From a virus (lineage: Duplodnaviria; Heunggongvirae; Uroviricota; Caudoviricetes), in the IMG/VR virus record IMGVR_UViG_3300031555_003801, positions 1-64,000 of that record: DNA of 64,000 nt; one strand, 5' to 3'. Within the stretch, counting starts at the first letter, position 1. The number at the start of each line of letters is the position of its first letter. A model generated the notes under the pieces. That model was not told the origin of the DNA and searched no databases. It was given only the letters and a program-made list of their open reading frames with translations. Below, piece after piece: positions 9,924-31,560 of the stretch. The translations under genes and the position numbers were made by a program.

Positions 9924-9932
9924 ATATTAATA

Positions 9933-10866: not shown

Positions 10867-10898
10867 AAAAATTGTTCTCATTTTCTTTATTTCTATTA

Positions 10899-11052
10899 AG
10901 ACTCAATACAGCAAAATTATAAAACTTGTTTAGGCAATATATAAACTCTACAGAAAATGTGCTGGTGACACGCTTTCACTGTTGTTATTATTTGATAGTA
11001 AGAAAAACAGGGATAATAACGCTAATAAAAACTGTTAAATTCTTTTGAGTCT
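10899..11052 (+). repeat. Hairpin-flanked element 'f': AGACTCAA / TTGAGTCT enclosing ~140 nt, with ACAGCAAA at 10908-10915
   Basis: 8-bp inverted repeat. The insert has no ORF. The suppressor tRNA follows directly. Confidence 0.45.
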
Positions 11053-11061
11053 AGTATTAAA

Positions 11062-11151
11062 GCTCCGTAGTCTAATGGTAAAACGCCGGACTCTAAATCC
11101 GTTATACTCTCTGAAAGGGTAATCTGGGTTCGAATCCCAGCGGGGCCGCCA
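11062..11151 (+). tRNA. Amber suppressor tRNA (anticodon CTA, reads UAG), class II with long variable arm
   Basis: Anticodon arm (c)cgga-ctCTAaa-tccg(t) with U33 and A37. Variable stem tactct/agggta. T arm ctggg-ttcgaat-cccag. Acceptor agctccg/cggggcc (1 A-C at 1-72) + g + CCA. The D arm is irregular. Confidence 0.6.
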
Positions 11152-11230: not shown

Positions 11231-11264
11231 AAACTATGATAAAAAATAAAAAAGGATAAAATAT

Positions 11265-12230
11265 ATGGAATTAATTGACTTTACGAAAGCAATAAATAAT
11301 GCTTAGTTATTTAAACCTACTGGTAACAATAAAAAAAAATTAAAAATTATTTATAATAATGAAGAATATATAATAAAAACTTCAAAATATACAATTGAAC
11401 AAGATAAAGAAAATAAATATAAAATGATTGAATTGTATAATACAATATCGGAATATTTAGGTTGTAAAATTTATGATAGTTTAAATATACCTGCACAAAA
11501 AACTTTATTAGGATATTATTAGTATAAAAATAAAAAACAAATGATAATTGCTTGTAAAAATTTTAATATTGATGATAGTTTTCTTCCTTTTGGTATATTC
11601 TTTAATAAAGAACGACAACAAGATAATAATAAATTGCAATCTTTAGAAATAAAAAATATTATAAAAAAAATTGAAGAACAAAATATTTATGATTCTCAAA
11701 AAATAAAAAAACGTTTTTGGGATATGTTTATTATTGATGCTTTTATTGATAATCCCGATAGAACTTCTGGAAACTGGGGTTTTATAAAAGATAAAAAAAC
11801 AAATACAATCATAAATTTTTGTCCAATTTTTGATTGTGAATAGAACATATTTTTAGAAATACTATTAAAAAATAAAAAACAATTATTAAATAATTAGAAT
11901 AAAATAAATTTTTTAGCTATATCGCCTTTTAAAAAATCTTATTTAATTTATGATAATAAAGTTATAAATTATTTTAATTTTATTTCCTCTTTAGAAAATG
12001 AAGATTGTAATGAAGCTTTAAAAAGAATTGTTCCTAAAATTGATATGGAAAAAATTATTTAGATTATAAATGATCTTCCACTTGAAGAATTCCAAAAAAA
12101 TAATTTAATAATAGTATTAAAAAAAAGAAAAGAATTATTATTAGATTTTCCTTTATTTCTCTTACAAAATATAGATAAAAGAGAAAAATACGAAAAAAAA
12201 ATAGAAAGGATAATATATGATAAATTATAA
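11265..12230 (+). CDS. HipA-like paralog with 5 in-frame TAG codons
   Basis: MELIDFTKAINNA*... FIIDAFIDNPDRTSGNWG. Same frame as ORF-track fragment 11541..11843. Its C-terminal ~125 bp is a near-exact direct repeat of the 3' end of 8099..8947. Stop TAA at 12228-12230 overlaps the ycaO start. Confidence 0.5.
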
Positions 12231-14007
12231 AAATCATTATAAAGAACGAAAACCAGAGGAAACAATAAAAATTATAGAAAACTTTTTTTTAAATCTCAAT
12301 ATGAAAATTAAAAGAAATGAAGTTATGATTAGTGAAATAAATACTTATTCAATACAAATAATATTATTTGATAAAAATGATTTTTTAATTTTATACGCTA
12401 ATGGTAAAGGTGAAACAGAAGAATTTGCAATTGCCTCTGCTTATGGCGAATTATATGAACGTTTCTGTAATATGAGATTTATTATGAAAGATGGTATTGC
12501 TCAAAATTTATTTTTACAAAAAAGAAAACAAAAATATAATTATTATTATCATCCAGAAGAAAAAGAATTTTCTTTAATAGAATTAATTAATGCCGATCAA
12601 AATTTTCATAATTTTTTCTTAGGAGATTTTTCTGAAAAAGATTCTGATATTATTAATTTTTATAATACACTTTTTAATAATAAATTTATTGCTGCGCCTT
12701 ATCAAGATTTATTAGATTCAAATAAACAATATTTTTATAACCCATATTTAATGACAGTGTTAAGAGGATCTGGCGGAATGGCTGCTGGAAATACATTAGA
12801 AGAAGCTTTAAATCAAGGCATTTCAGAACTTTACGAACATTATATTACAGATAAATTTCGTTATTTAAAAAAAGATTTTGATTTTCATTTTATAGATATT
12901 TCAACTATTAAAAACCAAAAATTAAAAGAAAAGATAAAATTATTAACAGATAATGAAAACTATGAATATTATTTAATTGATTTTTCTTATAATTTTAATG
13001 TACCTGTTTTATTATCTATTTTAATTGATAAAACTTTACAAAGATTTTTTATTAATTTTGGTTCTTTTCCTATTTTTGATATTGCTTTAGAAAGAACATT
13101 AACAGAATTATATCAAGGAGTTGTTTCTTTTAAAGAAGAAGAACAATCAAATAATATTATTGTTCCTTATAAAAGTGGAGTAACTATTATAGAAGCTTTA
13201 GACGCTACAGCAAATGTCACTAATTCTCTTTGTTTAAATGAAAGTTTTTTATTAAGTGAAAAAAAATTTTATTCCCCTAATTCAAAAATATTTTTATTTA
13301 ATCAGGATAAAAATTATTCAAATGAAGATATATTAAATTATTATAAAAAATTATCTTCTTATTTAAATATTAATTTTTGTTATTTAGATGTATCTCAATC
13401 TTCTGAAATGCATGCTATACAAATTTATAGTATAAATTTACCTCATTTCTCGTTACCTTTGGAAGCAAAAAAAATGCTTTACAAAAAACAACAATTAAAT
13501 GTTTATAAATTATTATCATATTTTATTCAGTTAGAAAATAAATGGCTAAATAATCATATATGGGATAATTTATTATGGGAAAAAATAATAATTTTATATA
13601 ATCAATTTACTATTGAAGATATTTTATTGTTTAATATTAGTGCCTCTATATTTTGTTTTAATTTTAGTAAAACTAATAATCTTTTATCATTAATTGAACA
13701 ATTTATAAAAATGGATTCAAATATTTATATGATTGAAGAACAAATTATTGCTATGTCTAATAAATCAATTCTTTCAGAAGATATTAAAAAATTCTTAACT
13801 CAATATAGGTATATTGTTAATAATGATTATCTTCCAAGTGAAAAAACTAAAATATTAAAAACTTTAATACCAGAATTTTCACAAGATGAAACATTATTTA
13901 AAAATATTATTACTCCAGAATATTTCTTACAAGTAATAATGGAAAAATTATATGAATATTATCATAGTGAAAAATATTCTGATTATCTTGATGCTTTAGT
14001 TGGATAA
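12217..14007 (+). CDS. YcaO-domain protein
   Basis: ANGKGETEEFAIASAYGELYERF matches the YcaO ATP-binding/cyclodehydratase signature. 596 aa. No TAG codons. Confidence 0.7.
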   Translation: MINYKNHYKERKPEETIKIIENFFLNLNMKIKRNEVMISEINTYSIQIILFDKNDFLILYANGKGETEEFAIASAYGELYERFCNMRFIMKDGIAQNLFLQKRKQKYNYYYHPEEKEFSLIELINADQNFHNFFLGDFSEKDSDIINFYNTLFNNKFIAAPYQDLLDSNKQYFYNPYLMTVLRGSGGMAAGNTLEEALNQGISELYEHYITDKFRYLKKDFDFHFIDISTIKNQKLKEKIKLLTDNENYEYYLIDFSYNFNVPVLLSILIDKTLQRFFINFGSFPIFDIALERTLTELYQGVVSFKEEEQSNNIIVPYKSGVTIIEALDATANVTNSLCLNESFLLSEKKFYSPNSKIFLFNQDKNYSNEDILNYYKKLSSYLNINFCYLDVSQSSEMHAIQIYSINLPHFSLPLEAKKMLYKKQQLNVYKLLSYFIQLENKWLNNHIWDNLLWEKIIILYNQFTIEDILLFNISASIFCFNFSKTNNLLSLIEQFIKMDSNIYMIEEQIIAMSNKSILSEDIKKFLTQYRYIVNNDYLPSEKTKILKTLIPEFSQDETLFKNIITPEYFLQVIMEKLYEYYHSEKYSDYLDALVG

Positions 14008-14017
14008 AATAAAATAA

Positions 14018-14047
14018 AAACGAGATTATTAAAAATAATCTCGTTTT
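14018..14047 (+). terminator. Rho-independent terminator
   Basis: aaacgagattatt-aaaaa-taatctcgttt + T-run. Confidence 0.7.
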
Positions 14048-14058
14048 ATATTTTTTAT

Positions 14059-14087
14059 TTGAAAATTTTCAAAAAAAATGTTATAAT
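14059..14087 (+). promoter_or_regulatory. sigma70-like promoter TTGAAA-N17-TATAAT
   Basis: ttgaaa 14059-14064, tataat 14082-14087 (tgtTATAAT). Confidence 0.6.
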
Positions 14088-14153
14088 ATATTATAAAGTT
14101 AAAAAATAATCCTCTTGTCCAAGAGGAAACAATGAGAAAAAGGAGTAAAGAGA

Positions 14154-15710
14154 ATGAATAAGTTTTTAAATGGATTAACTGATGCAACTAACTTCACTTA
14201 CACTGAAAATGGTGCTATTACCCATAAAACTACTAAGTCTGCTCTGTTAGATATGTTCGCACTTGGTGGAGCATATAGAACTAGAAGTGACGCAGAAGTA
14301 ATCACCTTATTTAAGAACGCATATGAGGAAAATCCTGTTTATGCGTTAAAGTGCCTGTTCTATCTGCGCGACGTGCGTGGCGGACAGGGTGAAAGAAGAT
14401 TTTTCAAAACTGCAATGAAGTGGTTTGCTAATGCTGATGTAGAAGCAGCAAGAAGAAATTTCAAGCATATTCCAGAGTTTGGTAGATGGGATGATTTATA
14501 TCTTTTCATTAATACGCCTCTTGAAAATGAAATGTTCCAGTTTATGAAGGAACAGTTAGCACTCGATATGCAGTGCAAAACACCTTCTCTGTTAGCAAAG
14601 TGGTTAAAGTCTGAAAATACATCTTCTATGGAATCCAGATATCTGGCTAAGAAGACTCGTCAGTATTTTGGCATGACCGCAAAGCAGTATAGAAAGACAT
14701 TATCTATCCTCCGTGAAAGAATTAATGTTCTTGAAAGATTAATGTCTGCAGGTAAGTGGGATGAAATCGAGTTCGATAAGATTCCTTCTAAGGCAGGTTT
14801 AATTTATAAGAATGCTTTTGCTAGACACGATATCGAAAGAATGAAGACTGAAAAGGCTGTAGTATCTTATGCGGATTTCGCTAAGGATGTAACTACAACT
14901 GTAAATGCTAAGGCATTATATCCATATGAAGTAGTAGCTAAGGCTATTGATTTAATGGGATATAATGGTGGTTGGTTCCGTAGCACTCATGATGTTCCAT
15001 TAGATAATACTGATAGACTTATGATTAATAAATATTGGAATAATCTCGCTGATTATATCCAGGGTGCTAATTTTAATGGAATTGCAGTGGTAGATACTTC
15101 TGGTTCTATGACTGGTTCTTTTGCTAGTGCACCAATTAATGTAGCTGTTTCTCTTGGCATGTATTGTGCTGAAAAAAATAATGGTCCATTCAAAGATCAC
15201 TTCATTACATTTGAATCTAATCCTCATTTAATTAAGGTTGAAGGCGTAGACTTTTGCGAAAAGGTTTATAATATTACTGGCGCAGACTGGGGTGGTTCTA
15301 CAAATATTGAAGCAGTGTTTGACTTATTATTAGATACTGCTATCAGAAATAATTGTTCTCAGGATGAAATTCCACAGAATGTAATTGTTATTTCTGATAT
15401 GGAGTTTAACTCTTGTGTAACTTTTAATAGCTTACTTGCAAGAAGATATTATAATGAACCTATGTTTAATACTGAAACTTTATTCGAAACCATGGAACGC
15501 AAATGGAATAGAGCAGGATATCAGATGCCTGCAATTACATTCTGGAATGTTCAGGCAAGACAGAATAATATTCCAATGAAGACTGAAGGTAGAGTAAATT
15601 ATGTATCTGGTATGTCTCCAGTAATCTATGAACAGGTTATGAAAGGTTTAAGTGCTTACGATCTGATGATGGATAAGTTAGATAATGAAAGATATAGCGT
15701 AATTTGCTAA
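14154..15710 (+). CDS. vWA (MIDAS) domain protein with large N-terminal helical domain (Ro60/TROVE-like architecture possible)
   Basis: MIDAS motif VVDTSGSMTG. 518 aa. Clearly higher GC and different codon usage than flanking phage genes. Confidence 0.55.
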   Translation: MNKFLNGLTDATNFTYTENGAITHKTTKSALLDMFALGGAYRTRSDAEVITLFKNAYEENPVYALKCLFYLRDVRGGQGERRFFKTAMKWFANADVEAARRNFKHIPEFGRWDDLYLFINTPLENEMFQFMKEQLALDMQCKTPSLLAKWLKSENTSSMESRYLAKKTRQYFGMTAKQYRKTLSILRERINVLERLMSAGKWDEIEFDKIPSKAGLIYKNAFARHDIERMKTEKAVVSYADFAKDVTTTVNAKALYPYEVVAKAIDLMGYNGGWFRSTHDVPLDNTDRLMINKYWNNLADYIQGANFNGIAVVDTSGSMTGSFASAPINVAVSLGMYCAEKNNGPFKDHFITFESNPHLIKVEGVDFCEKVYNITGADWGGSTNIEAVFDLLLDTAIRNNCSQDEIPQNVIVISDMEFNSCVTFNSLLARRYYNEPMFNTETLFETMERKWNRAGYQMPAITFWNVQARQNNIPMKTEGRVNYVSGMSPVIYEQVMKGLSAYDLMMDKLDNERYSVIC

Positions 15711-15723
15711 TTCAAAAAATAAA

Positions 15724-15756
15724 AGGCGGGGTAAAAATACTCCGCCTTTATTTTTT
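15724..15756 (+). terminator. Rho-independent terminator
   Basis: ggcggggtaaaaatactccgcc + ttta-ttttttt. Confidence 0.7.
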
Positions 15757-15947
15757 TCAAAAAATATGATATAATATTATATAATAAAAAATAAGGAGTG
15801 ATATCATGATTCATGTATTAGTGATAGCTTTCTTTTTAAGTTTCTTTATGGCTTGTGTTGTTGAAAATGATGAAATGCCAAAAGAAGAAAAATATCGCTG
15901 GTTCGCAGTTATAGTAGGATTAATAGTTTATGTTTATTTAACTGCAT

Positions 15948-16751
15948 TTGTTTTATAAGAAAGGATTTTTAATGAAATATTTTATTGATTTTGAAGCCAA
16001 TAGTCCGACGAATGAAATCATTGAAATAGGTTGCGTTTCTGAAAAAAATGATTGTTTTAAAATGTATGTTAAACCAACTACACCTATTGACCCATTTATT
16101 ACGGGATTAACGCATATTACAAATAAAATGGTAGAAGATTCTCCTTTAATTGATGAAGCAATTATGATTTTTTATAATTGGCTTATCAATACGCAGGAAC
16201 ATTTTTCTTGGAAAGATACTACTTTTTATTGCTATGGAAATGCGGATCATTCATTTATTCAGGCTTCAGCACAAACTTGCGAAACAACTGATTCTTATAT
16301 GATTCTTGCGGCTATGGCTATGTCTTTGAAAGATTTTACCAAGAAAGTAAATCATTTCTTTAAAGATAGTATTTCTTTAATCCAGGCATTAAATTATTTT
16401 AAAACCTCGGAAACAGCTTGGGAGCAGTGTCATGATGCTCTTGAGGATGCGCTAGCTTTAAAAGAATTATATAAAGTTTTACCAAAAAAATATTCATTAC
16501 CTTGTTCTCCATTTGTTATTAAAACAGAAATGGGTGTTAGAAGAAATAAAAAAGGTTATGGATATACTGATTATATTAGTTTAACAGAAGCTACTGAATG
16601 TGTTGTAAAAGAAATATTAACAACATCACCAAATTCTAATGTTAAATCTGAAAATATTAGAAAAAGAATTATTCATGCTATTAATAAGAAAAGTTCTTAT
16701 ATGGGATATAAATGGAAATATGTAAAGATTGAGAAAGGGGATGAAGAATAA
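15948..16751 (+). CDS. DEDDh-family 3'-5' exonuclease (DnaQ/RNase T-like)
   Basis: Exo I motif FIDFEANSP..EIIEIG. Exo III motif HDALEDALAL. The true start is probably the internal Met at MKYFIDFE. Confidence 0.65.
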   Translation: MFYKKGFLMKYFIDFEANSPTNEIIEIGCVSEKNDCFKMYVKPTTPIDPFITGLTHITNKMVEDSPLIDEAIMIFYNWLINTQEHFSWKDTTFYCYGNADHSFIQASAQTCETTDSYMILAAMAMSLKDFTKKVNHFFKDSISLIQALNYFKTSETAWEQCHDALEDALALKELYKVLPKKYSLPCSPFVIKTEMGVRRNKKGYGYTDYISLTEATECVVKEILTTSPNSNVKSENIRKRIIHAINKKSSYMGYKWKYVKIEKGDEE

Positions 16752-18169
16752 TGTATTAGGCATATGTAACTAAATTAAAAAATGTGCGGCCGCACCCTAA
16801 TGCTGATAGAATGCTTTTAGCAGACTGTTTCGGCAATACTGTTTGTGTAGGCCTTGACGCGCAAGAGGAAGATGTAATTCTCTATTTTCCAACAGATGGA
16901 CAATTATCTAAAGAATATGCGGAAATCAATAATCTTATAAGAATCAAGAATGAAGATGGAACATATTCCGGTGGATATTTAGACCCAGATAAAAGAAACA
17001 TCAAAGCAATTAAATTAAGAGGTGAAAAATCTGATGGTTTAGTAATGCCACTAGAATCCCTTTCTTCTTTTGGAGATATTTCTACTTTAAATATTGGAAA
17101 TACAATTAATGTCTTTAATGGACATGAAATTTGTAAAAAGTATATTCCAAGAGAAAATCCAATGAAGGTGCGCGCTGGCGGTAATAAGACCCGCAAGACC
17201 AAGCGCCTAATTGCTCCTTTATTCAAAGAACATGCTGATACTGAACAATTAGCATATAATCTTGATGCTTTCAAAGCGGGAGATGAAATTGAAATCACAT
17301 TAAAGATGCATGGAACTTCTCAAAGAACTGCTTACTTACCAAAATTAATTGGTTATAAAAGATCTATTTTAGATAGACTCTTAAAGAGAGAAGGAACTCC
17401 AATCTATGATTGGGGCTATGTGTCTGGAACTCGTAGAACTGTTGTAGATGATTTTGAAAATAGAACAACTTCTTTCTATGGTAGTGATGCATTTAGAGAA
17501 CCGCATGCAAAAATGTTTGAAGGAAAGCTTTATAAGGGTGAAACTGTTTATTATGAAGTTGTTGGTTTTACCGATAATGGAACTCCTATTATGGGTTCTT
17601 GTGATAATAGAAAAACTCAAGATAAAGAGTTTATTAAGAAATATGGTGAAGTGACTACTTTCTCTTATGGTTGTGACTGTGCGGAACAAGCATGGAGAGA
17701 AAATAGAGGACAAGATCCAGACAAACCTCAGTCTGACATTTATGTATATCGAATGACAATGACTAATGAAGATGGTTATGTAATGGAATTAACTCCTGAT
17801 TATATGAGATATAGATGCGAGCAGATGGGTGTAAAGACAGTGCCTGTTATGTGGAAAGGATACATTCCTTATACAGTAGATGACATTGATTCTACTATTC
17901 CTGGTCACAGAATTATACTTAGAGAAGGGGAAAATGCTGGAGACTGGGTTAAGAGTGTAGCAGAACAGTATTACGATGGACCTGACCCAATTGGTAGAAC
18001 CCATGTGCGGGAAGGTGTAGTTGTAAGAATTATAAATAGACCAAAATTTGCAGCATATAAGCATAAAAACTTTAGCTTCAAAGTTCTCGAAGGAATTGTC
18101 AAAGCGGATGCATTAATGCCAGATATGGAAGAAGCACAGGAGACTATTGATGAAAGTTCAGAGATTTGA
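16751..18169 (+). CDS. ATP-dependent RNA ligase (Rnl2/Rnl5-like, nucleotidyltransferase motif I KMHGTS) with N-terminal OB-like domain; codon 3 is TAG
   Basis: ATG TAT TAG at 16751-16759 joins onto ORF-track frame 16784..18169. LKMHGTSQR resembles the KxHG(T/S)N motif I of the Rnl2 family. GC-richer than the surroundings. Confidence 0.55.
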
Positions 18170-19102: not shown

Positions 19103-20566
19103 ATGAAGAAATTTTTAACATTTGTTTTATGTTTCTGTATTATGTTTACATTCAGTGTCGGAGCTTCATTTGCGGCAGTGGTATCCACTACCTACAAGAG
19201 CGAAGTCGTTAAGAACGCTGTAGAAAGTGTATGCACTGTCGATTTAACAAAGTATTCCAAGAGTATGGAAGAAGTAATCGCAAATGAAATTGCGGAACTG
19301 CGCACTTTTGCTGCTGGTAAGGAATCTCTTGATGCAGAGGTTTTAAAAGCAATTGATGAATTAAAGGATTTTCTTGCTGATAATACTCTTGCGGCTCAGG
19401 AAGCTGAATTAAAGGAAATTAAGACTGATGCTATTATTAAGTTTGAAAATAAGGTTGATGCTTATGTAGCTTCTAAGGAATGGACAGAAGATCAGATTAA
19501 GCTTGGTGAAAAGACTGAATTTGAAGCTGATGTAAAGGCTTTTACTGATTGGTTTATTGGTAAGAGATTCTATCATCCTGGTAAGAATGTAATTAATAGT
19601 GGACATGAAACTGGTTCTACTGAATTAACATTTGCTTCTGCAAAGGCTGATATTGAATATTTAAATGGTAAAGTAATTGATGATGCTTGGTTCGCTCAGA
19701 TTGTTGGCATGCTTGATGAAGTAAAGAATGTTAAGTATGAAGCAGATAAGTATTATGCTGATCTTGCTCATTATAGTTCTGATACTTACTCTGCTGGAGC
19801 AATCGCAGCAGCTAAGGCTGAAACTTATGCTGGTATTGAACTTTTAGATATTACTGATGTTACAAAGTTTGTAGAACCAAAGACTATCGAACAGGAAAAG
19901 GCTGATAAGACAGAAGCTGATGCTAAGGCATTAGTAGATGCTAAGAAGGCTGCTATCTTCGCTATCACAGCTGGCGACTATTATGTAGGAAACTGGAGTG
20001 GTGAAGCTAAGGCATATGTTGCTGATATTCAGTCTAAATATACTGTATATATCAATGCTGCTACTACAATCGCAAAAGTTGATGCTTATAAGTATGAAGC
20101 AATGAGACTTATGGGCGGATATCAATCTGACGTACAGATTAAAGATGAAAACGATAAGTTAATTGGCGATTTAAACGATACTAAGGAAGAATTAGATAAG
20201 ACTAAAGAAGAATTAGAAGCTATTAAGAAAGAAATGGCTTTTGATAAAGCTATGGATAATTTATCTGTAAAGGCTAGAAGTGCAAAGACTTCTAAAGGTT
20301 ATATTAAAATAACTGCTGTGGCTGATACAGAAGAATTAGAAGAACTTGGTTATACTGTAAAGTATAAGTTCTATCGTGCTACTTCAAAGAATGGCGAATA
20401 TGTTGCTAAATTCACAAGCAAAGGAACATATACTAACACTGGCGGAACAAAAGGTAAGATGTATTACTACAGAGTAAAAGCTCTTGTTTATGATGCTGAT
20501 GGTCAGTTAGTAGCAGAAACAAAGATTAAAGATTGTAAGTATGCTTGCAGAAAGTTTGGTAAGTAA
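19103..20566 (+). CDS. Secreted protein with N-terminal signal peptide (hypothetical)
   Basis: MKKFLTFVLCFCIMFTFSVGASFAAV signal peptide. 487 aa. Markedly higher GC than the phage backbone. Strong RBS AAAGGAG. Confidence 0.5.
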   Translation: MKKFLTFVLCFCIMFTFSVGASFAAVVSTTYKSEVVKNAVESVCTVDLTKYSKSMEEVIANEIAELRTFAAGKESLDAEVLKAIDELKDFLADNTLAAQEAELKEIKTDAIIKFENKVDAYVASKEWTEDQIKLGEKTEFEADVKAFTDWFIGKRFYHPGKNVINSGHETGSTELTFASAKADIEYLNGKVIDDAWFAQIVGMLDEVKNVKYEADKYYADLAHYSSDTYSAGAIAAAKAETYAGIELLDITDVTKFVEPKTIEQEKADKTEADAKALVDAKKAAIFAITAGDYYVGNWSGEAKAYVADIQSKYTVYINAATTIAKVDAYKYEAMRLMGGYQSDVQIKDENDKLIGDLNDTKEELDKTKEELEAIKKEMAFDKAMDNLSVKARSAKTSKGYIKITAVADTEELEELGYTVKYKFYRATSKNGEYVAKFTSKGTYTNTGGTKGKMYYYRVKALVYDADGQLVAETKIKDCKYACRKFGK

Positions 20567-20670: not shown

Positions 20671-20910
20671 ATGAAAGGAAAAATGATTATGGATATTTTT
20701 ACCTTAGCATATATGAAAAATATGATGAAAGGCTTACATACTGAAGATTGTGAAGGTATTCCTGGTAAATCTGCTTATGAAATTGCAGTTGAAAATGGAT
20801 TTGAAGGAACTGAACAAGATTGGTTAAATGCTATTTATATGAATCCTGAAGACCAATGGATTACATTAGATGATATATTGGCAGCTAAACAAAAAAGCGA
20901 GAACAATTAA
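20671..20910 (+). CDS. Hypothetical protein
   Basis: ORF with RBS AAAGGAAA. A terminator follows at 20896-20926. Confidence 0.35.
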   Translation: MKGKMIMDIFTLAYMKNMMKGLHTEDCEGIPGKSAYEIAVENGFEGTEQDWLNAIYMNPEDQWITLDDILAAKQKSENN

Positions 20911-20989
20911 GTTCTCGCTTTTTTGTTTTATATAAAAAAATATGATATAATATAATATAAAATAAAAATGAGTAAAAGGAGAAGAATAT

Positions 20990-22177
20990 ATGTCAAATTG
21001 TAATGAAAATAATTGTTCTTCTTTAAAAGAATTAATTACAAATTATAAATATAATAATTTATTACCAATTCATGGGATTTTATCTGTTACAAATAGATGT
21101 AATTTAAATTGTTCTTATTGTTTTCATAAACAAAATGAAATAGATATAAATTTTTATACTGCGGATATGGCTATAAAATATATTATTTCAAATGCGACTA
21201 TTCAAAAAGTAAAACCTAATATTAGCTTTTTTGGAGGAGAACCTTTATTATTATTTGATGAAATAATAAAACCATTAATTAATAAATATAAAGATTCTAT
21301 AAATTGGACTATTACAACAAATGGAACTTTATTAACAGAAAATATTATAGATTTTTTTACTGATAATAATGTTTCTATTTTATTATCTATGGATGGATGT
21401 AAAAAAGTTCAAGACAATCAAAGGCCTATGAAAAATGGAGAAAGTTGTTTTGATAAATTAAAAAATATCATTCCATATTTATTATTAAAGCAACCTAATA
21501 CTATTTTTAGGTCAACAATCTCAAGATATTCTTTAGATTTTTTAGAAGAAAATATTAATACGGCTAAAAATTTTGGTTTTAAATATATTACATTAGTGCC
21601 TAATTTATTTGAAGAATGGCAACCAGAAGATTTTTATAAGTGGGAACAATTTATAGATAATGAATCTATTAAAATTATGCAAAAAATTTCTTGGGAAGAA
21701 CCTTTTGATTACATATTAACAAATTTAAAAGATGGTATTCAAGGAATTTATAAATCTAATCAAAATAATTATTTAAAAAATCCTATTGATGCTTGTGGAA
21801 TGGGCTTTAAAGGTATTGGAATTTCTCCAAATGGAAAATTACATCCTTGTCAAGAAGAAAACGGTGTAGATGATATAAATATTATAGGTGATATTTATTA
21901 CGGAATTGATAAAAAATTACATGAACAATACTGTAAAGATATTTATAATAAATGGTTAGAATATATAGAAAAAATAGATAATATAATAGGAAGTTCTAAT
22001 TTTAAATTATTTTATGGAAATCATGTTTGTAATACAAGATTAAAAGATGGATTTGCTTTTAATAATACACAAACATATTATTTAAGAGCTTTACATAGAG
22101 CTTGTTCAAGATTATATTATAATTTTAATTTATCTTTAAATCCAAGAGCACAATATTTTTTAGGAGAAATTGAATGA
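20990..22177 (+). CDS. Radical SAM enzyme with C-terminal SPASM/twitch-like Cys cluster
   Basis: CNLNCSYC (CX3CX2C) near the N-terminus. C-terminal CGMGF...HPCQEENG cysteines. Confidence 0.8.
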   Translation: MSNCNENNCSSLKELITNYKYNNLLPIHGILSVTNRCNLNCSYCFHKQNEIDINFYTADMAIKYIISNATIQKVKPNISFFGGEPLLLFDEIIKPLINKYKDSINWTITTNGTLLTENIIDFFTDNNVSILLSMDGCKKVQDNQRPMKNGESCFDKLKNIIPYLLLKQPNTIFRSTISRYSLDFLEENINTAKNFGFKYITLVPNLFEEWQPEDFYKWEQFIDNESIKIMQKISWEEPFDYILTNLKDGIQGIYKSNQNNYLKNPIDACGMGFKGIGISPNGKLHPCQEENGVDDINIIGDIYYGIDKKLHEQYCKDIYNKWLEYIEKIDNIIGSSNFKLFYGNHVCNTRLKDGFAFNNTQTYYLRALHRACSRLYYNFNLSLNPRAQYFLGEIE

Positions 22178-23373
22178 TTACTTTAAACTTACATATAAAT
22201 TATAATTGTCCTTTATCTTGCCGATATTGTTGTCAAAGAAATGATATAGCTTTATTAGATTCTGAATTTACTGCTCAAGAAATGATTGATGTAGTACAAA
22301 ATTTTATGGATTCTAAAAATGTTGATAAATGTAAAATAAATATATCTGGAGGAGAACCTCTTTTAAAATATAAAGATATTCAACAATTAATGAAACATTT
22401 TCCAAATAATACTTATGAAATTTCTACTTCTGGATATTTATTAACTGCTGAAAAAGCTAAATTCTTTTCTTATTATGGAGTTAGTTATATTTTATCTGTT
22501 GATGGGGGAGAAAAAGTAACTAATTATTTAAGACCTCTAGCAAATGGAGAACAAGGATATTTTCAAAAATTAAAAGAAAATATACCACATATTTTATATT
22601 ATGCTCCAAGAACAAGAGCAAAATTAATTGTTCCTAAAAATTTAATTTCAGAAATTTTTAACACTTATTTAGAATTAGAAAGACTTGGTTTTCAAGAAAT
22701 TTTTATAACACCTAATGTATATGAAAATGAGGTTGATACACATCATCCAGAATTAGAGACAGGTCATTGGGAAGAAGAAGATTGGAATAAATTTAGAACT
22801 GAAATTTTTAAAATTATGAAAGAAATAGAATTAGGTATTTCTTTAAATCGAAAAAGATGTTTAATTACTAATATTATTACTATTTTAGTAAAAATGTTAA
22901 TTCCAGAAGAAGGAAAATTTAATAGTGCTAAATTAATTTGTGAAGTATTAGATTTTAAAGGCGGAACAAGTCCTGCTGGTGGGCAAGTTCCTATTTTAAA
23001 TACAGATATTTCTTTATGTATGAGAAATATAAATGAAGAAATTGATACTCAAGAAAAACTGTTAAATAAAATAAAACAAGATTATTTAGCTCTTAATGGC
23101 GTTTGCGAGCTAGATGAAAAATGTCCATATCAATCTACTTGTATGTATAGTGTTTGTTTATCTGAAAATTTAAAAAGTAAACATAAAAATATTTTTACTC
23201 CAACATTATTTCAGTGTAATACTCAAAAGATTTATCATGATGCAGCAATGTTATTTTTAAATCTTTTAAATGATAAAAATAATGAAGTTATAAAATATTA
23301 TTGGAATGAAATTTATTATAGAAAAGAGGTGTCTATGAATAATGCCTTATTATCCAGCTGGAACGGTGAATGA
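22174..23373 (+). CDS. Second radical SAM/SPASM-like enzyme
   Basis: CPLSCRYC (CX3CX2C). C-terminal CELDEKCPYQSTCMYSVC Cys cluster. Overlaps the upstream gene by 4 nt. Confidence 0.75.
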   Translation: MITLNLHINYNCPLSCRYCCQRNDIALLDSEFTAQEMIDVVQNFMDSKNVDKCKINISGGEPLLKYKDIQQLMKHFPNNTYEISTSGYLLTAEKAKFFSYYGVSYILSVDGGEKVTNYLRPLANGEQGYFQKLKENIPHILYYAPRTRAKLIVPKNLISEIFNTYLELERLGFQEIFITPNVYENEVDTHHPELETGHWEEEDWNKFRTEIFKIMKEIELGISLNRKRCLITNIITILVKMLIPEEGKFNSAKLICEVLDFKGGTSPAGGQVPILNTDISLCMRNINEEIDTQEKLLNKIKQDYLALNGVCELDEKCPYQSTCMYSVCLSENLKSKHKNIFTPTLFQCNTQKIYHDAAMLFLNLLNDKNNEVIKYYWNEIYYRKEVSMNNALLSSWNGE

Positions 23374-24028
23374 AGTTTGTGAAGCTTGTTATGCTTCTGA
23401 AAGTTCTTGCAAACCAGATTTTGGAAGTTCAACTGAATCCACCTACTGTGGAAATTGTAATGTTCAATGTAATACATCTCAAAGTTTTTGTTCTATTGGA
23501 ATTCAAAATATTTCTTCTCATGGAAATGTAGGTTCTTTTAGTGGCTTTGGTGCAACCAGTGATAATTTAATTTTTGAAAAATGGACAGCAAGTAAATGGA
23601 ATGAATTACAACAATTATATGAAATTGCTAATGGTTTAGGAATTAAACAAAATCAAGGAGCAAGTTTTTCATTTACAAGAGCCGCGGCAGATCCTTGTAA
23701 TAATACACATCCTGCGAATTCTTTAATTACTGCTGAAAAATATAATGAATTTTCTACTGCTGCAGAAAAATTTGGTTCTTATATTCCAACTGTTACTGGA
23801 GGACCTAGTGGTACAGTTATAACTGCTGGGCATTCTACAAATTTAGAAAATGGTTTTTCTAATGCTAAATTTAATACTTCTGTATGTGATATATGTAACG
23901 CAGGAACTGAACATAACTGTGGTTATAATTGTAGCTGTAATTATAATTGTGGTTATAACTGTAATTATAATTGCTGTAATCATAATTGTAATAAAAATGA
24001 AACAAGTGATGCTGGCGGTGCTAAATAA
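23342..24028 (+). CDS. Cysteine-rich protein with C-terminal tandem NCGYN/NCxYN repeats; candidate substrate of the adjacent rSAM enzymes
   Basis: N-terminal CEACYASESSCK...CGNCNVQCNTSQSFC. C-terminal NCGYNCSCNYNCGYNCNYNCCNHNCNKN, encoded by a ~15-bp tandem DNA repeat at 23917-23995. Overlaps the rSAM stop. A terminator follows at 24038. Confidence 0.55.
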   Translation: MPYYPAGTVNEVCEACYASESSCKPDFGSSTESTYCGNCNVQCNTSQSFCSIGIQNISSHGNVGSFSGFGATSDNLIFEKWTASKWNELQQLYEIANGLGIKQNQGASFSFTRAAADPCNNTHPANSLITAEKYNEFSTAAEKFGSYIPTVTGGPSGTVITAGHSTNLENGFSNAKFNTSVCDICNAGTEHNCGYNCSCNYNCGYNCNYNCCNHNCNKNETSDAGGAK

Positions 24029-24037
24029 AAATATTAA

Positions 24038-24070
24038 AGGTGAGATAAAAAATCTCACCTTTATTTTTTT
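24038..24070 (+). terminator. Rho-independent terminator
   Basis: aggtgagataaaaaatctcacct + ttatttttttt. Confidence 0.75.
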
Positions 24071-24130
24071 TAAAAAATATGTTATAATATATTATAATAA
24101 AAATTAAGAAATAAATAAGGAGTTGATACT

Positions 24131-24850
24131 ATGGCTACTTACATTTGCAGTGATTTACATGGCAATTATAATGTATGGTATGAAATCAAAAAATTCTTAA
24201 AAAAAGATGATAAATTAATTTGCCTTGGTGATGTAATTGATAGAGGTTCCGCAGGATATTCCATTTTAGTAGAAATGCTTGGAGATTCAAGAGTAGAATT
24301 ATTTATGGGTAATCATGAAGATATGATGATTCGTAGTTGTGATTTACATCTTAAAGGTGCTAATACAAATACTTCTTCCACTATGGCAAATTGGATTTAT
24401 GGCAATGGTGGAAATTGTACTTTTGAAGATTGGTGTCTCGATCCTGGTCGTATGGAAATATTAGAACAAATGCGCAATCTACCTTTAAAAAGATTACATA
24501 TTAATGAAAAAGGTTTAAAAATTATTTTATGTCATGCAGGTTGTTGTTCAGAAGATTTTTATAATGATAATATTGAAGATTTTGATTTGTTATGGGATCG
24601 AAATCATTTTCATTTTCCTTGGCCAAAAGATGAAGAATTTGAAGACTGGATGGTAGTTCATGGACATACTCCAATAGCAAAGATGATGAATTGGCCAGAT
24701 TATGTGCCGACCAAAGCTCTATGGTATGAAGGTGGGCATAAAATTGATATTGATTGTTTAACAGCATTTACCAATTTTACTATTCTTCTTAATATTGATA
24801 CTTTTGAAGAACATATTATTGGAGAACCTATTGAGGAGGTGCTTTGGTAA
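24131..24850 (+). CDS. Calcineurin-like metallophosphoesterase / Ser-Thr protein phosphatase (lambda PPase/ApaH-like)
   Basis: Motifs CSDLHGN, GDVIDRG, GNHE. Confidence 0.75.
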   Translation: MATYICSDLHGNYNVWYEIKKFLKKDDKLICLGDVIDRGSAGYSILVEMLGDSRVELFMGNHEDMMIRSCDLHLKGANTNTSSTMANWIYGNGGNCTFEDWCLDPGRMEILEQMRNLPLKRLHINEKGLKIILCHAGCCSEDFYNDNIEDFDLLWDRNHFHFPWPKDEEFEDWMVVHGHTPIAKMMNWPDYVPTKALWYEGGHKIDIDCLTAFTNFTILLNIDTFEEHIIGEPIEEVLW

Positions 24851-25140
24851 TGGCTGCTTATGAAATTCATGATTTTTATTGTATTAAATGCGGAAATAAA
24901 TCAATTCCATTATCTCGTAAAAGTGGGCATCAGCATGCAAGAGGTCATAGAAAGAAATTATATTGTCCGCATTGTAAATTAACTATTAACCATGTAGAAG
25001 TAAGGAATTATGATGAAAAAGAAGAATTTTTGGAAAAATTTAAAAATGGTGAATTCATTGCCGAAGTCGAAGAAAGCATTGAGAATTGTGAGAATTCATC
25101 CATGCGGGTATTGTTCGAATCCATATCTAGCAAGAGATAA
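24844..25140 (+). CDS. Hypothetical zinc-ribbon protein
   Basis: CIKCGN...CPHCK. Confidence 0.35.
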   Translation: MVMAAYEIHDFYCIKCGNKSIPLSRKSGHQHARGHRKKLYCPHCKLTINHVEVRNYDEKEEFLEKFKNGEFIAEVEESIENCENSSMRVLFESISSKR

Positions 25141-25164
25141 TTTTGCGAGTCAAAAATATGATGT

Positions 25165-25674
25165 TTGGTTTTGTCCAAAATGCGGAACGGGATGGGTGAT
25201 ATAATGGCAACAAGTTTAATTATGATGGTTGGCGCGCCTGGAAGTGGTAAAACTACTTGGATTAAAAATGCTAAAGAATTTAATTTAGAAGGAAATCATA
25301 TTTCTCGAGATGTAATTAGATTTTCTTTAGTAAAAGAAGACGAAGAATATTTTAGTCGAGAAAATGAAGTATTTGATAAATTTATTGAAGAAATTCAAAA
25401 GTCTATTGATGCGGGACAGCGCACTTATGTAGATGCTACTAATCTCAATGAAAGATCAAGAAATAAAGTTCTTGATAGATTAAATCTTGAAAATGTAGAT
25501 TTATATGCTTTAGTTTTTAATATTCCTCTTGAAGAATGTTTGCGACGCAATGCTCTGCGGACCGGACGTGAAGTAGTGCCAGAAAGCGCTCTGACGCGCA
25601 TGCATAAATCTATGACAAATCCGCGAGGAGACCAGAAATATAAATATAAGGAGGTATATGTAATTTATGCCTAA
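25165..25674 (+). CDS. Polynucleotide 5'-kinase (T4 Pnk kinase-domain-like P-loop kinase)
   Basis: MMVGAPGSGKTTW (Walker A), ISRDVIR, DATNLNERSR, FNIPLEECLRRNALR, all similar to the T4 Pnk kinase domain. The start is probably the ATG at 25204. Confidence 0.65.
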   Translation: MVLSKMRNGMGDIMATSLIMMVGAPGSGKTTWIKNAKEFNLEGNHISRDVIRFSLVKEDEEYFSRENEVFDKFIEEIQKSIDAGQRTYVDATNLNERSRNKVLDRLNLENVDLYALVFNIPLEECLRRNALRTGREVVPESALTRMHKSMTNPRGDQKYKYKEVYVIYA

Positions 25675-25909
25675 ATATTGCAAATATTGCGGAAAAGAAT
25701 TAGAGTTAGATTTTAATTTTGATCTTGGTTTTTCTTCTCCTAATAATACTTCCTATAAAGAATGTAATTGTGAAACTAAACAAAAAATTAAAAAATTAAA
25801 AGAAAAAATTCATGAACTTGAAATAAAAAAGAAAGCTTTGCATGAAGAACAATATCATTTAAAATGCGATTTAAATGATTTAGAATATAATGCTACAAAA
25901 TATATTTAA
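25667..25909 (+). CDS. Hypothetical protein (Cys pair + coiled coil)
   Basis: ORF track only. Confidence 0.3.
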   Translation: MPKYCKYCGKELELDFNFDLGFSSPNNTSYKECNCETKQKIKKLKEKIHELEIKKKALHEEQYHLKCDLNDLEYNATKYI

Positions 25910-25912
25910 GGA

Positions 25913-26536
25913 GTGATACTAATGGGGAAAATTTTCCTTACTAGTGACTGTCATTTCAACCATGTTAATATTATTAAATATGAGTCTGAAACACGCGGCA
26001 TGTTTGCTAGTCCCGCAGAAATGAATGAAAAAATTATTGAAAATTGGAATAGTGTAGTTAGTCCAGAAGACACAGTATATGTTTTAGGGGATTTATGTAT
26101 GGGAAAGCTAGATGATATTCCCTTAATTATTGAAAGACTAAATGGCACTATTGTTCTCGTTCGCGGTAACCACGATACAGAGAACAGATTACGTCTTTAT
26201 CGTTCTCTTGGAATTGAAGTAAAAGATATTGCTTACCTTGAATATAAAGGCAGATTTTTTGTAATGTGTCATTTCCCTATGACTAATCCAGAATTTATTA
26301 AATTAGTTACAAAAGATAATAGTGAAGTAGTTATGCTTTATGGACATATTCACTCTAATGCGCCAAAGGGTTATGTAGATGGAACTTATCATGTAGGTAT
26401 GGATACAAATGATTTAACCCCAATTTCAATTCATCAAATTTGGAAAGAATGTTGGCCAGAAAATATGAATGAACAAAATAAAGCATATAAAGCAAAGTAT
26501 GAATGTGGAGGTTGTCCAGAAGAAGATAATTGTTAG
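25913..26536 (+). CDS. Metallophosphoesterase (calcineurin-like; candidate 2',3'-cyclic phosphodiesterase/3'-phosphatase partner of the kinase)
   Basis: TSDCHFNH, GDLCMG, GNHD, GHIH motifs. Confidence 0.7.
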   Translation: MILMGKIFLTSDCHFNHVNIIKYESETRGMFASPAEMNEKIIENWNSVVSPEDTVYVLGDLCMGKLDDIPLIIERLNGTIVLVRGNHDTENRLRLYRSLGIEVKDIAYLEYKGRFFVMCHFPMTNPEFIKLVTKDNSEVVMLYGHIHSNAPKGYVDGTYHVGMDTNDLTPISIHQIWKECWPENMNEQNKAYKAKYECGGCPEEDNC

Positions 26537-29767: not shown

Positions 29768-30220
29768 ATGAAGAGAGAGCCTGAATTTATTTGGAATGAA
29801 CAAGCAGGTATTGCTACTTGCGTAATTGAAGACGCAAAGGGAAGAAATCATGTAGGTGTTGCTGCTTGTCATCCAAAAGACAGAGATATGATGACAGATA
29901 AAGTTGGTTGCGAAATTGCGCTCAGACGTGCGGAAATTGAAGCTCTTCGCTCATATATTAGAGATGAATTAAAACCAGGTCTTGACGCTTTAAATCAGCT
30001 TTATTTTTCTATTAAACATAGTAAGAAGTTTAGTCCTAAAGGATATGAGACTATTATGTTATATAGACAAATTAGACAAAAAGAAGAAGATATTGCTCTT
30101 GTAAAAAGTATTATTAGAGAAAGAAAATCTGATTTAAAAGCTTATATTGATGCAAAAGAACATTTTTATCAGATTACTCGCAAGGGTAGAGAACTTGCAG
30201 CTGAGGGCAATAATATTTAA
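29768..30220 (+). CDS. Hypothetical protein
   Basis: Start chosen at ATG 29768, which has RBS AAAGGAG and an upstream -10 TGATATAAT. The ORF-track start at 29717 would include the promoter. Confidence 0.4.
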   Translation: MKREPEFIWNEQAGIATCVIEDAKGRNHVGVAACHPKDRDMMTDKVGCEIALRRAEIEALRSYIRDELKPGLDALNQLYFSIKHSKKFSPKGYETIMLYRQIRQKEEDIALVKSIIRERKSDLKAYIDAKEHFYQITRKGRELAAEGNNI

Positions 30221-30300
30221 TTTTATTAAAAACATTTTTAATAAAATTAAGGAATATACAAATATATTCCAAAACTATTAGCAAAGAGGGAAGATACAGA

Positions 30301-31560
30301 ATGAAGATATACAAATTTTATGATACTTGCAGTCTATTAATCAAGGCAGATGCTTTATTTAAAGATGAACAAGATACCATAGTTATTTCTTCAATAAGCT
30401 TAGAAGAGTTAGAAAACATTAAAACCTCTGGCTCTAAGGATGAAGATACTAAGATGCGTGCTAGACATTTATTGCGCGTTCTTGATGAAAATCCTGACAA
30501 GTATGAAATTTGGATCTTTAAAGAACCAATGTTGAAGCCTATTGAGGAAAAGGGTTTTAGCATCTCAAATGATATGAGAATCCTTGCTAGCGCAATTGAT
30601 TATGATAATACTTGCCATCCAGATGAAACAGTATTTATAACCAATGATTTATTATTAAAACATATTGCTAATTTATTTTTTGGTGAAGATTCTGTTGGTA
30701 GTATAGAAGAAAATATTGATGATGGATATACTGGCTTCAAGGAAGTATATTTATCTAATGAAGAAATGGCCTAGTTTTATTAGAATATAAACTAGAATAT
30801 TTTTAATTTGCATATAAATTAGTATTTATTTATTTATAATCAATAGAAATAGCATGTAGATACTGTCTGCTGGGATGGTGAAACACATCGTAGTGTAATA
30901 TATCATTCATTTAAATCTGAATGGTTTGGTGAAGTCAAACCATATAAACATGATATTTATCAAGTCATTTTGGCAGATAGTTTATGTAATAATCAAATAA
31001 CCATGGTAAAGGGGCCTGCGGGCACAGGTAAAACATTCCTTTCTCTTGGTTATTTAATGCATTTATTAGAAAAAGGTAAAATTGATAAGATTATTGTTTT
31101 TTGTAATACCGTAGCTACCAAAAATTCTGCTAAGCTGGGGTATTATCCAGGAACTAGAAATGAAAAGCTTCTGGATTCACAAATTGGTAATCTACTAATT
31201 AGTAAGTTAGGAGACAGATATGCGGTTGAAGATTTAATTGAAACCGGAAAATTAGTTTTATTACCTTTATCTGATATTAGAGGCTATGATACTTCTGGAA
31301 TGAATGCAGGTATTTATATCTCAGAAGCGCAAAATATGGATATTTCATTAATGAAATTAACATTACAGAGAATCGGAGAAGATAGTGTTTGTATCATTGA
31401 TGGTGATTGTAAAACTTAGGTAGATGATATGAGTTTTGCGGGTCGCAATAATGGTATGCGTAGAGTTTCAAAAGTATTTAGAGGACAAGATGTGTATGGA
31501 GAAGTTGAACTTCAAATTATACATCGTTCAAAAATAGCACAAATTGCGGAGCAGTTATAA
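30301..31560 (+). CDS. PhoH-like protein (N-terminal PIN domain + PhoH P-loop ATPase) read through 8 in-frame TAG codons, 7 of them clustered in the interdomain linker
   Basis: PIN-like FYDTCSLL, SLEEL, ITNDLLL. ATPase motifs GPAGTGKT and IIDGDCKT*VDD...GEVELQIIHRSKIAQIAEQL. ORF-track pieces 30301..30774 and 30970..31419 are in the same frame and are joined by TAG-containing sequence. Confidence 0.65.

Follow-up and report, generated by a model that had tools for sequence, protein, structure and literature searches.

Among bacteria, radical S-adenosylmethionine (rSAM) maturases of the SPASM class have been described for peptide natural products and for a small number of enzymes, namely sulfatases and QHNDH. 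In the ranthipeptide/SCIFF systems, PapB–PapA (freyrasin) and CteB–CteA, a SPASM-type rSAM gene stands beside the gene of a Cys-rich substrate, a peptide of approximately 45 residues whose Cys residues lie 1–3 residues apart and are flanked by Asn or Asp. QhpD is a SPASM rSAM enzyme that installs several Cys-to-Asp/Glu thioethers in a polypeptide, QhpC, that stays a functional protein. Anaerobic sulfatase-maturating enzymes (anSME) are SPASM enzymes of ~370–400 residues that modify a Cys in a full-length protein and are devoid of the recognition element (RRE) associated with peptides that are made on the ribosome and modified post-translationally (RiPPs). Here, we describe a cassette at positions 20990–24028 of a 64,000-nt stretch of DNA (positions 1–64,000 of IMG/VR record IMGVR_UViG_3300031555_003801; hereafter, the window) from a virus of the class Caudoviricetes, a large gut phage. 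The cassette encodes two rSAM enzymes, rSAM1 and rSAM2, and a 228-residue Cys-repeat protein. On balance, we read it as a Cys-repeat protein together with its dedicated rSAM maturases, in an enzyme–substrate relation that probably involves thioether stapling.

With the ranthipeptide/SCIFF pairs, the phage cassette shares the gene arrangement, the Cys spacing and its Asn/Asp flanks, as well as the best profile (PapB) and structure (CteB) matches. It differs in that its presumed substrate is a protein of 228 residues with two tails around a folded core, and in that two paralogous enzymes are present, one of them without a second auxiliary cluster. Like QhpD–QhpC, the proposed maturation would leave a product that stays a protein, and the QhpD model matches rSAM1, although below its cut-off; the phage substrate family is unrelated to QhpC, and neither qhpA/qhpB, a cysteine tryptophylquinone (CTQ) context nor a periplasmic signal accompanies it. 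The repeat-Cys systems (TIGR04115, CefB, CcpM), which were defined in silico, likewise pair an uncharacterised SPASM maturase with a regularly Cys-spaced peptide, but their targets are short bacterial peptides and the phage scores fall far below the respective cut-offs. Two paralogous rSAM maturases acting on Cys-containing substrates from a single cluster are described for thuricin CD (TrnC/TrnD; PMC12093266) and ruminococcin C (RumMC1/RumMC2; PMC8188230), and set a precedent for two rSAM enzymes on one product. Both of these products differ from the phage protein in being small secreted bacteriocins encoded with a leader, transporter and immunity genes. Overall, the cassette is most like ranthipeptide/SCIFF or QhpD–QhpC maturation, yet lies outside every maturase family tested. 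A protein-sized, two-tailed substrate, the absence of RRE, protease and exporter, a pair of paralogous enzymes of which one is Twitch-like, and residence in a phage set it apart.

A discrete three-gene transcription unit

The three genes form one transcription unit on the plus strand. The open reading frames (ORFs) of rSAM1 (A-type; 20990–22177, 395 residues) and rSAM2 (B-type; 22174–23373, 399 residues) share an ATGA at 22174–22177, and the Cys-rich ORF (23342–24028, 228 residues) starts 32 nt inside the 3′ end of rSAM2. Both overlaps, of 4 and 32 nt, agree with the first-pass annotation of this DNA, which had been made from the letters alone and had proposed two adjacent rSAM genes coupled to the start of a Cys-rich one. 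A ribosome-binding site (RBS) for the Cys-rich ORF, AAAGAGG (23323–23329), falls within the 3′ end of rSAM2, a position suggestive of translational coupling; that of rSAM1, AAAGGAG (20975–20981), is located 8 nt 5′ of its ATG. Both were read from the sequence.

The same annotation placed a promoter before the operon and a terminator after it. The latter is an intrinsic terminator with a 12-bp stem, a 5-nt loop and a T-run (24035–24063, plus strand), found by a scan that returned 3 sites in the region against 0.4 expected. The promoter proved to be a mixed case: a generic sigma-70 scan stays at chance level (36 sites vs 31 expected), but the promoter-like site at 20927–20960 (plus strand; TTTATA, 18-nt spacer, TATAAT, with a TG extension; 10/12 hexamer match) contains at 20939–20960 an exact copy of a recurring 22-nt motif, AATATGWTATAATATAWTATAA. 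The window contains 13 copies of this motif where 0.13 would be expected, 12 of them on the plus strand; another exact copy among them (24076–24097), right behind the cassette terminator, opens the next unit. On the upstream side, a hairpin (GCGAGAAC-AATTAA-GTTCTCGC) followed by a T-run at 20897–20924 (plus strand), read directly from the sequence and absent from the terminator-scan list, ends the preceding 79-residue ORF and thereby insulates the cassette. Having its own promoter motif and flanking terminators, the cassette therefore constitutes a discrete transcription unit, driven by the type of promoter that also serves the genome's tRNA and RNA-repair units. Among the ORFs between the flanking terminators, neither Pfam nor the ORF list yielded a protease, transporter or immunity gene.

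Plus-strand starts of AATATGWTATAATATAWTATAA, which resembles an extended −10 promoter, include 1729, 2643, 14075, 15763, 20939, 24076, 38550 and 53837, and all copies that were checked precede transcription units. Intergenic stretches carrying the motif show weak DNA matches to Lak and Enterococcus phages.

The two enzymes and their nearest relatives

Both enzymes carry the rSAM motif CX3CX2C, invariant in their respective homologues (C37/C41/C44 in rSAM1 and C12/C16/C19 in rSAM2), and both pass the Pfam Radical_SAM cut-off of 29.5 bits (PF04055; 60.1 and 37.4 bits, respectively). The auxiliary Cys clusters that the first-pass annotation had attributed to both are complete only in rSAM2. There, the family alignment reveals seven conserved auxiliary Cys (C256, C282, C311, C317, C323, C328 and C348) in the pattern CX25C … CX5CX5CX4C … C, whose spacing differs from the canonical CX9-15GX4C … CX2CX5CX3C … C. 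rSAM1 retains C269 and C287 (CX12GX4C) together with C347; it is devoid of the three leading Cys of CX2CX5CX3C and of the distal Cys, and thus departs from the seven-Cys SPASM pattern. The same second-cluster Cys are missing in 12 other aligned rSAM1 homologues of the close clade (at least 47% identical), and ligands of this cluster have also been lost in the lineage of loci L006 and L007 (see below); more distant A-type enzymes retain the full auxiliary set. Having no ligands for the second auxiliary cluster, rSAM1 is regarded as Twitch-like. A co-evolution of this loss with the CxYN tail of the window protein was considered and rejected, given that L006/L007 are also without the ligands yet encode CxC tails.

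Residues 1–15 of rSAM1 (window 20990–21034) form a short Cys knuckle, C4-X4-C9. Such knuckles are frequent in A-type enzymes (CQDCNNC in L002, CTQCTSEC in L008, CDDKKCNSC in L014) and absent in phage Phass-1 and L001; judging from these motifs, the knuckle may be an extra metal site.

Comparison with NCBIfam gave the ranthipeptide maturase model PapB (NF047865, cut-off 340) as the best match of rSAM1, with 150.6 bits (rSAM2, 72.4). The next models were ScfB-related (119.4 bits vs cut-off 855), nif11-peptide maturase (116.5 vs 518.7), SCIFF maturase (TIGR03974, cut-off 425; 113.9, and 52 for rSAM2), QhpD (TIGR03906, cut-off 453; 105, and 37.2 for rSAM2) and CcpM (TIGR04068; 101.6 vs 500). All six act on Cys-rich peptides or proteins. 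Cyclophane-forming maturase models scored 82 (YhhB), 53 (FxsB), 50 (AmcB) and 47 bits (GrrM/OscB) on rSAM1, anSME (TIGR03942, cut-off 349) scored 72 bits on rSAM1 and 50.2 on rSAM2, and the CXXX-repeat peptide maturase (TIGR04115, cut-off 350) 69.4 and 36.8 bits. The Cys-every-fifth model CefB (NF038107) and the RumMC-type models reached 70.7 and 67.6 bits against cut-offs of 600 and 720. The list for rSAM2 is of the same kind as that for rSAM1, with lower scores throughout. The Pfam SPASM model (PF13186) matches neither of them.

The structural comparisons point the same way. The best match of rSAM1 in the PDB is CteB (5wgg, E 6.7e-23; rSAM1 31–316 vs CteB 101–393), which is also the closest solved structure to rSAM2 by sequence (E 1.2e-7). 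Because these alignments begin at CteB residues 99–101, rSAM1 and rSAM2 have no counterpart of the N-terminal domain of CteB, whose first ~100 residues we take to be RRE-like, and no RRE-sized domain is detectable in either phage enzyme. In a Foldseek search, the AlphaFold2 model of rSAM2 (mean pLDDT 86.4) gives full-length alignments with CteB, ChlB, anSME, TigE, SuiB and SkfB, the target-normalised TM-scores for anSME being 0.66–0.70. By sequence, then, the nearest relatives of both enzymes appear to be thioether-forming SPASM maturases, represented by the PapB model and the CteB structure.

The assignment of the enzymes to a peptide- or protein-modifying class, made in the first-pass annotation, is therefore supported by the NCBIfam, PDB sequence and fold searches, which all place them nearest to PapB, SCIFF/CteB, QhpD and CcpM. 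The opposite case that it had envisaged, anSME or cofactor enzymes unrelated to peptide modification, fits less well, with anSME scoring lower and far under its cut-off. The phage enzymes resemble anSME in size, in being RRE-less and in fold; they differ in that no sulfatase was found among the neighbouring ORFs examined and no C/S-x-P/A-x-R (CxPxR) motif was seen in the 228-residue protein. Likewise, the ORFs examined in the window include no qhp genes. Scores below the cut-off, the missing counterpart of the RRE-like domain and the lack of an NCBIfam match for the Cys-rich protein also place the cassette outside SCIFF, whose peptide carries six Cys in 45 residues. PADLOC matches of the enzymes to pVip span only the shared radical SAM core, and a pVip defence function was dropped.

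The rSAM1 family comprises 790 homologues at E ≤ 1e-10, and among the 120 listed the sole source name is 'radical SAM protein'. For rSAM2, 32 homologues are detectable.

A Cys-repeat protein with two tails around a helical core

The 228-residue protein contains 18 Cys (7.9%); for the remaining large ORFs of the window, the proportion is 1.66% (binomial P = 7e-8). Of the 18 Cys, 17 fall within residues 13–50 and 182–216. It is thus Cys-rich at both ends and carries the tail NCGYNCSCNYNCGYNCNYNCCNHNCNKN, as first annotated. The N-terminal region (residues 13–50; 23378–23491, plus strand) holds Cys 13, 16, 23, 36, 39, 43 and 50 and ends in a conserved Q-x-[FY]-C; AlphaFold2 assigns it a pLDDT below 50. 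It is followed by a Cys-poor helical core (residues ~53–181; 23498–23884, plus strand) with three similar helix units, WTAxKWNxL, SLITAxKYN and xVIxxxHS, which is confidently folded in the AlphaFold2 model and conserved in the family, and which had no match in the fold search. The C-terminal tail (residues 182–216; 23885–23989, plus strand) consists of an invariant C-D-I-C-N, a 7-residue linker and (C-x-[YHK]-N) repeats, with CXXX in five of its nine Cys–Cys spacings. The tandem repeat in the underlying DNA (23913–23992, plus strand; Tandem Repeats Finder), which had been estimated at ~15 bp, is in fact built from a 12-bp unit encoding one C-x-x-N (4.5 copies), with a 30-bp super-period (2 copies).

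No match to the protein was found in Pfam, NCBIfam, PHROG or PADLOC. A word-indexed search returned 28 homologues, and a profile search of 1.84 billion representatives returned 115 clusters, 54 of them at E ≤ 1e-10. The window protein is the top match of the family profile (E 1.6e-83) and contains all invariant alignment columns. Throughout the family, an N-terminal Cys stretch ending in Q-x-[FY]-C precedes a core of ~130 residues, C-D-[IV]-C-N and a Cys tail; Cys makes up 25.6% of the tails and 0.6% of the core, with tail spacings of 1–3 residues. When GenBank phages were searched for the cassette or the Cys protein at the DNA level and by tblastn, only short intergenic matches or nothing came back. 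A family-pattern scan of 185,579 species-representative genomes, confined to one peptide pattern, gave no confirmed homologue.

In the family tails, the residue that follows Cys is Asn in 26.5%, Ser in 16%, Asp in 13% and Gln in 8% of cases. Asn, Asp and Glu are the acceptors for NxxcB, PapB and QhpD. The tail repeats of the window protein carry Asn at +3 from Cys, not the Asp of PapB substrates (CX3D), in which the thioether is attached to the Asp beta-carbon.

The protein could also be a substrate for a different chemistry, such as cyclophane formation on Y/H-N-C units, formylglycine formation as in anSME, epimerisation or another Cys heterocycle. The cyclophane models, anSME and others do match rSAM1, the fold search also lists anSME, TigE (a cyclopropylglycine synthase), SuiB (a Lys–Trp cyclase) and EpeE (an epimerase), and in the clade of the window Tyr or His stands at +2 from Cys in every tail repeat. 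Three observations make this quite unlikely in our view. The thioether families score highest (PapB 150.6, ScfB-related 119.4, SCIFF 113.9, QhpD 105 and CcpM 101.6 bits); Cys alone is common to all tails, with aromatic residues absent from the CxC and most CxxC tails; and the CxPxR sulfatase motif was not seen in the protein.

Alternatively, the Cys-rich protein may be a metal or Fe–S partner (a metallothionein-like store, an Fe–S donor or an electron carrier) of enzymes that modify a nucleic acid, a small molecule or a host protein. Tails with 25.6% Cys that are rich in Ser, Asn, Gly and Asp, contain CxC and CxxC, recall metallothioneins and are predicted to be disordered without a ligand would suit such a role, as would RRE-less enzymes; rSAM enzymes require Fe–S assembly and a reductant, and the phage also encodes an anaerobic ribonucleotide reductase. 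The variable Cys spacing, in turn, argues against a defined cluster site, ferredoxin and metallothionein models in Pfam and NCBIfam give no match to the protein, and the nearest relatives of the enzymes all modify peptides or proteins. Further points against a metal partner come from the distribution of the cassette.

Linkage and exchange of the cassette among phages

The homologous cassettes that the first-pass annotation suggested looking for in other phages were found. With the orthology of A- and B-type enzymes assigned by BLAST, we compared the 13 loci for which upstream DNA is available, i.e. the window, L001, L002, L004 (Phass-1), L006, L007/L009, L008, L011/L012, L013, L014, L016, L017 (a 132.6-kb contig of an NCBI assembly) and L018. 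In 13/13 loci, the two genes directly upstream of a family member include an A-type rSAM gene, and the linkage between enzyme and Cys protein holds down to about 20–30% identity. B-type genes are present in nine loci, all nine of which encode a linker of 6–9 residues followed by CxC repeats (CxxxC in the clade of the window), whereas the A-only loci (n = 4) encode CxxC tails. In phage Phass-1 (OQ749652, 'code 15 clade', complete genome), the cassette becomes visible only when TAG is read as Gln; the paper on Phass-1 makes no mention of radical SAM or of the cassette. The phage setting is supported by PHROG matches, IMG/VR contigs and the complete Phass-1 genome.

Extra, divergent rSAM genes occur 3′ of the Cys-rich gene in some loci: two in L002 (10677–12834), one in L007/L009 (8711–9571), with 7 TAG codons, and one in L017 (8538–9428). 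Among 'Bacteriophage sp.' fecal contigs with 25–29% identity to rSAM1, the one inspected, L005, has no Cys-repeat protein beside its rSAM gene and was rejected as an instance of this system.

The cassette forms a hypervariable island in L004 (3470–6727), L006 (5558–10220) and L007 (5799–10112). The flanking DNA of these three loci is 90–97% identical and the neighbouring PhoH, SLT-like, amidase-like (on our reading of the sequence), GyrB and GyrA proteins are 93–99% identical, yet similarity between the cassettes at the DNA level is absent or patchy. Across the Phassvirus relatives, A-type enzymes are 34–52%, B-type enzymes 54% and Cys proteins 30–55% identical, and the enzyme sets of L004, L006 and L007 differ. 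Since the cassette has diverged between near-identical neighbours, whole enzyme-plus-substrate modules have been exchanged, in the manner of an arms race. This hypervariability was not seen in the lineage of the window itself, where the cassette is 70–86% identical to that of L018, like its neighbours. A gyrase-directed toxin, which came to mind as the cassette abuts gyrB/gyrA in eight loci, was found unsupported and the neighbourhood merely syntenic; the adjacency is broken in the window (8.7 kb away), L013, L014, L016 and L017.

The joint exchange of enzyme and protein as one module and the agreement between tail type and enzyme set both argue against the Cys-rich protein being a metal or Fe–S partner of enzymes with another target, and together with the points given above lead us to consider that explanation unlikely.

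Clues to the biological role

In relatives, the cassette adjoins lysis genes, with SLT and lysozyme genes in L001/L002, the amidase-like gene in L004/L006/L007 and a holin gene directly upstream in L017. The cassette genes of L008 contain 11 and 6 in-frame TAG codons and those of Phass-1 contain 10, 1 and 3, compared with none in gyrB/gyrA. According to published models, in-frame TAG in recoded phages indicates late expression, and on this analysis the codons in the cassettes of relatives point to late expression. The window cassette itself contains no TAG codon; it is surrounded by RNA-repair genes and preceded by the common promoter motif.

A link to structural proteins comes from one distant homologue only, the 286-residue P0107 (hhalign probability to the family, 96%), in which a helix plus Cys-repeat module directly precedes a Peptidase_S74 domain (24.9 bits, cut-off 22), the C-terminal intramolecular chaperone of certain phage tail-fibre proteins. 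At its locus (L010, 1–16861), the radical SAM genes number nine and are accompanied by genes for a GT2 glycosyltransferase and a UDP-glucose dehydrogenase, and the 1383-residue protein beside P0107 reads as fibre-like. The module is shared by phrog_26958. The window protein differs in that it carries no S74 domain and that neither PHROGs nor the fold search match it to fibres.

L015 (5001–6808) belongs to a bacterial-looking 346-kb contig with sortases and pilins. There, the gene after an A-like rSAM (36% identical) encodes a 111-residue peptide ending in ACDVCNSSCNTCNSCNSCN..., i.e. ACDVCN(SxxC)n. The similarity of this peptide to the family is not significant by hidden Markov model (HMM) comparison and is limited to the motif level. 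L015 may represent the system in a bacterial, leader-plus-core form, and as such it would lend itself to a classical secreted RiPP, in which most of the 228-residue protein is an oversized leader and a host or phage protease frees a bacteriocin-like C-terminal core of ~35 residues at lysis. The lysis genes next to the cassettes of relatives and the hypervariability of the locus, common in toxin loci, are in keeping with such a product. We nevertheless consider it improbable, as genes for a protease, a transporter or immunity are missing from the unit, the N-terminal region is conserved and Cys-rich in its own right, and the conserved, confidently folded core is unlike a disposable leader. The L015 peptide, for its part, fails to reach significance by HMM. 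The first-pass annotation had left the choice between a RiPP-like and a protein-maturation cassette; with no leader cleavage or export function encoded, 'protein maturation' fits better than a classical RiPP.

Genome context

By its gene content, the window belongs to a large amber-recoded phage. The large ORFs are all encoded on the same strand, and GC is ~30% except in 1–2000 (16.6%) and 12001–14000 (19.9%), where it is unusually low. PHROG matches comprise RNA ligase, polynucleotide kinase, topoisomerase II subunits, NAD ligase, DnaB-like helicase, primase, RecJ-like exonuclease, Dda-like helicase, DnaE-type polymerase and NrdD, the anaerobic ribonucleotide reductase. The window encodes 20 tRNA genes (array at 1863–11151), a tmRNA (10465–10813, tag AKPYRLAA) and a CUA-anticodon amber-suppressor tRNA (11061–11151; labelled tRNA-Pyl by ARAGORN). 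Four ORFs (30214–31557, 42204–43157, 8084–8944 and 11250–12227) are whole only with TAG as an amino acid, and reading TAG as Gln yields a PIN–PhoH protein (Pfam PIN_4, PhoH) and a GIY-YIG protein, each with 7 in-frame TAG. As several ORFs need TAG as an amino acid, the phage appears to be amber-recoded, code 15-like. Identical proteins are on record from a 188-kb contig under the name 'MAG: Firmicutes bacterium'.

Two of the TAG-containing ORFs, 8084–8944 and 11250–12227, are paralogues that flank part of the tRNA array and share a nearly identical C-terminal sequence, ...INYFNFISSLENEDCNEALKRIVPKID.... ORF 8084–8944 has no Pfam match; the motif FWDMFIIDAFIxNxDR may be related to that of HipA-type kinases. 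Just upstream of the cassette, 19103–20566 encodes a 487-residue protein that appears to start with a signal peptide and matches no family; a homologue (35%) occupies the same position in L018 (7294–8712), although the block lies elsewhere in that genome. The 79-residue ORF (20671–20910) that precedes the cassette stands alone between two terminators and carries a GKSAYEIAVENGFEGTEQDWLNAI motif with matches inside tail-fibre, tail-sheath and tail-protein PHROGs (E ~1e-7).

Genes resembling RNA-repair or counter-defence functions surround the cassette at 12217–18169 and 24131–26536. They encode a DUF2828/TROVE-like 'RNA-binding protein' (14154–15710), an RNA ligase (16784–18169), two metallophosphatases and a polynucleotide-kinase-like P-loop protein (25165–25674). 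L014, L016 and L018 likewise have a DUF2828 gene close to the cassette, and L014 additionally has one of the Gad1 family there.

Discussion

In the mechanism that we propose, rSAM1 would be the universal partner of the Cys-repeat family, and rSAM2 a paralogous second maturase for proteins with a CxC or CxxxC C-terminal tail. Each enzyme would bind a [4Fe-4S] cluster through CX3CX2C and cleave SAM. The resulting 5′-deoxyadenosyl radical would take a hydrogen from the residue beside a Cys, here usually Asn, Ser, Asp or Gln, while an auxiliary cluster holds the Cys thiolate, giving an intramolecular Cys-S-to-carbon thioether. Repeated along both tails, this reaction would turn disordered Cys segments into compact, redox-insensitive and protease-resistant knots. 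Because the enzymes are without an RRE domain, the helical core may serve as a docking handle in place of leader and RRE, and is probably also the functional body of the protein. As the unit encodes no protease or exporter, the product would stay a protein.

Several points weigh against this proposal. The linked loci come from related phages that are not phylogenetically independent, so that their counts overstate independence. Neither enzyme is a member of any curated NCBIfam family, with all scores far under the cut-offs, and SPASM sequence similarity is a poor predictor of chemistry. Judged from its missing Cys ligands, rSAM1 appears to have lost one auxiliary cluster. AlphaFold2 gives no structure for the Cys tails, whose spacing is highly variable across the family (CxC, CxxC and CxxxC) and whose composition is metallothionein-like. 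Finally, the cassette falls outside the general definition of a RiPP, as it has no RRE-sized domain, leader, protease, transporter or immunity gene.

As to its role, the product would most likely be made late, released or associated with the virion, with a part in a host–phage or phage–phage arms race. A more specific version holds that this is the first case in which rSAM chemistry modifies an extracellular or virion protein of the virus itself, with thioether staples acting as a redox-proof substitute for disulfides in phages of strict anaerobes and rigidifying the tails of a small, fast-diversifying fibre- or adhesin-like protein. The S74-fused member amid nine rSAM genes, the adjacency to lysis genes, the TAG codons in the cassettes of recoded relatives and the 30–55% identity of the cassette proteins against 93–99% for their neighbours are compatible with this version, which we put forward as speculative and regard as doubtful.

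The first-pass annotation was aware of no phage precedent, and in the literature we likewise found no description of such a phage-borne rSAM/Cys-repeat cassette, nor any report of a conserved phage-borne enzyme–substrate module with a protein-sized target. Because the three-gene unit recurs in many related phages, it probably encodes an undescribed enzyme-matured viral protein. If our reading of the cassette as a Cys-repeat protein with dedicated rSAM maturases is true, it would represent a new class of viral post-translational modification. It would also provide RRE-independent, protein-docking maturases that tolerate CxC, CxxC and CxxxC repeats and would be useful in peptide stapling. For the phages themselves, it would explain a hypervariable island in amber-recoded gut phages and flag ~115 unannotated protein clusters for functional study.

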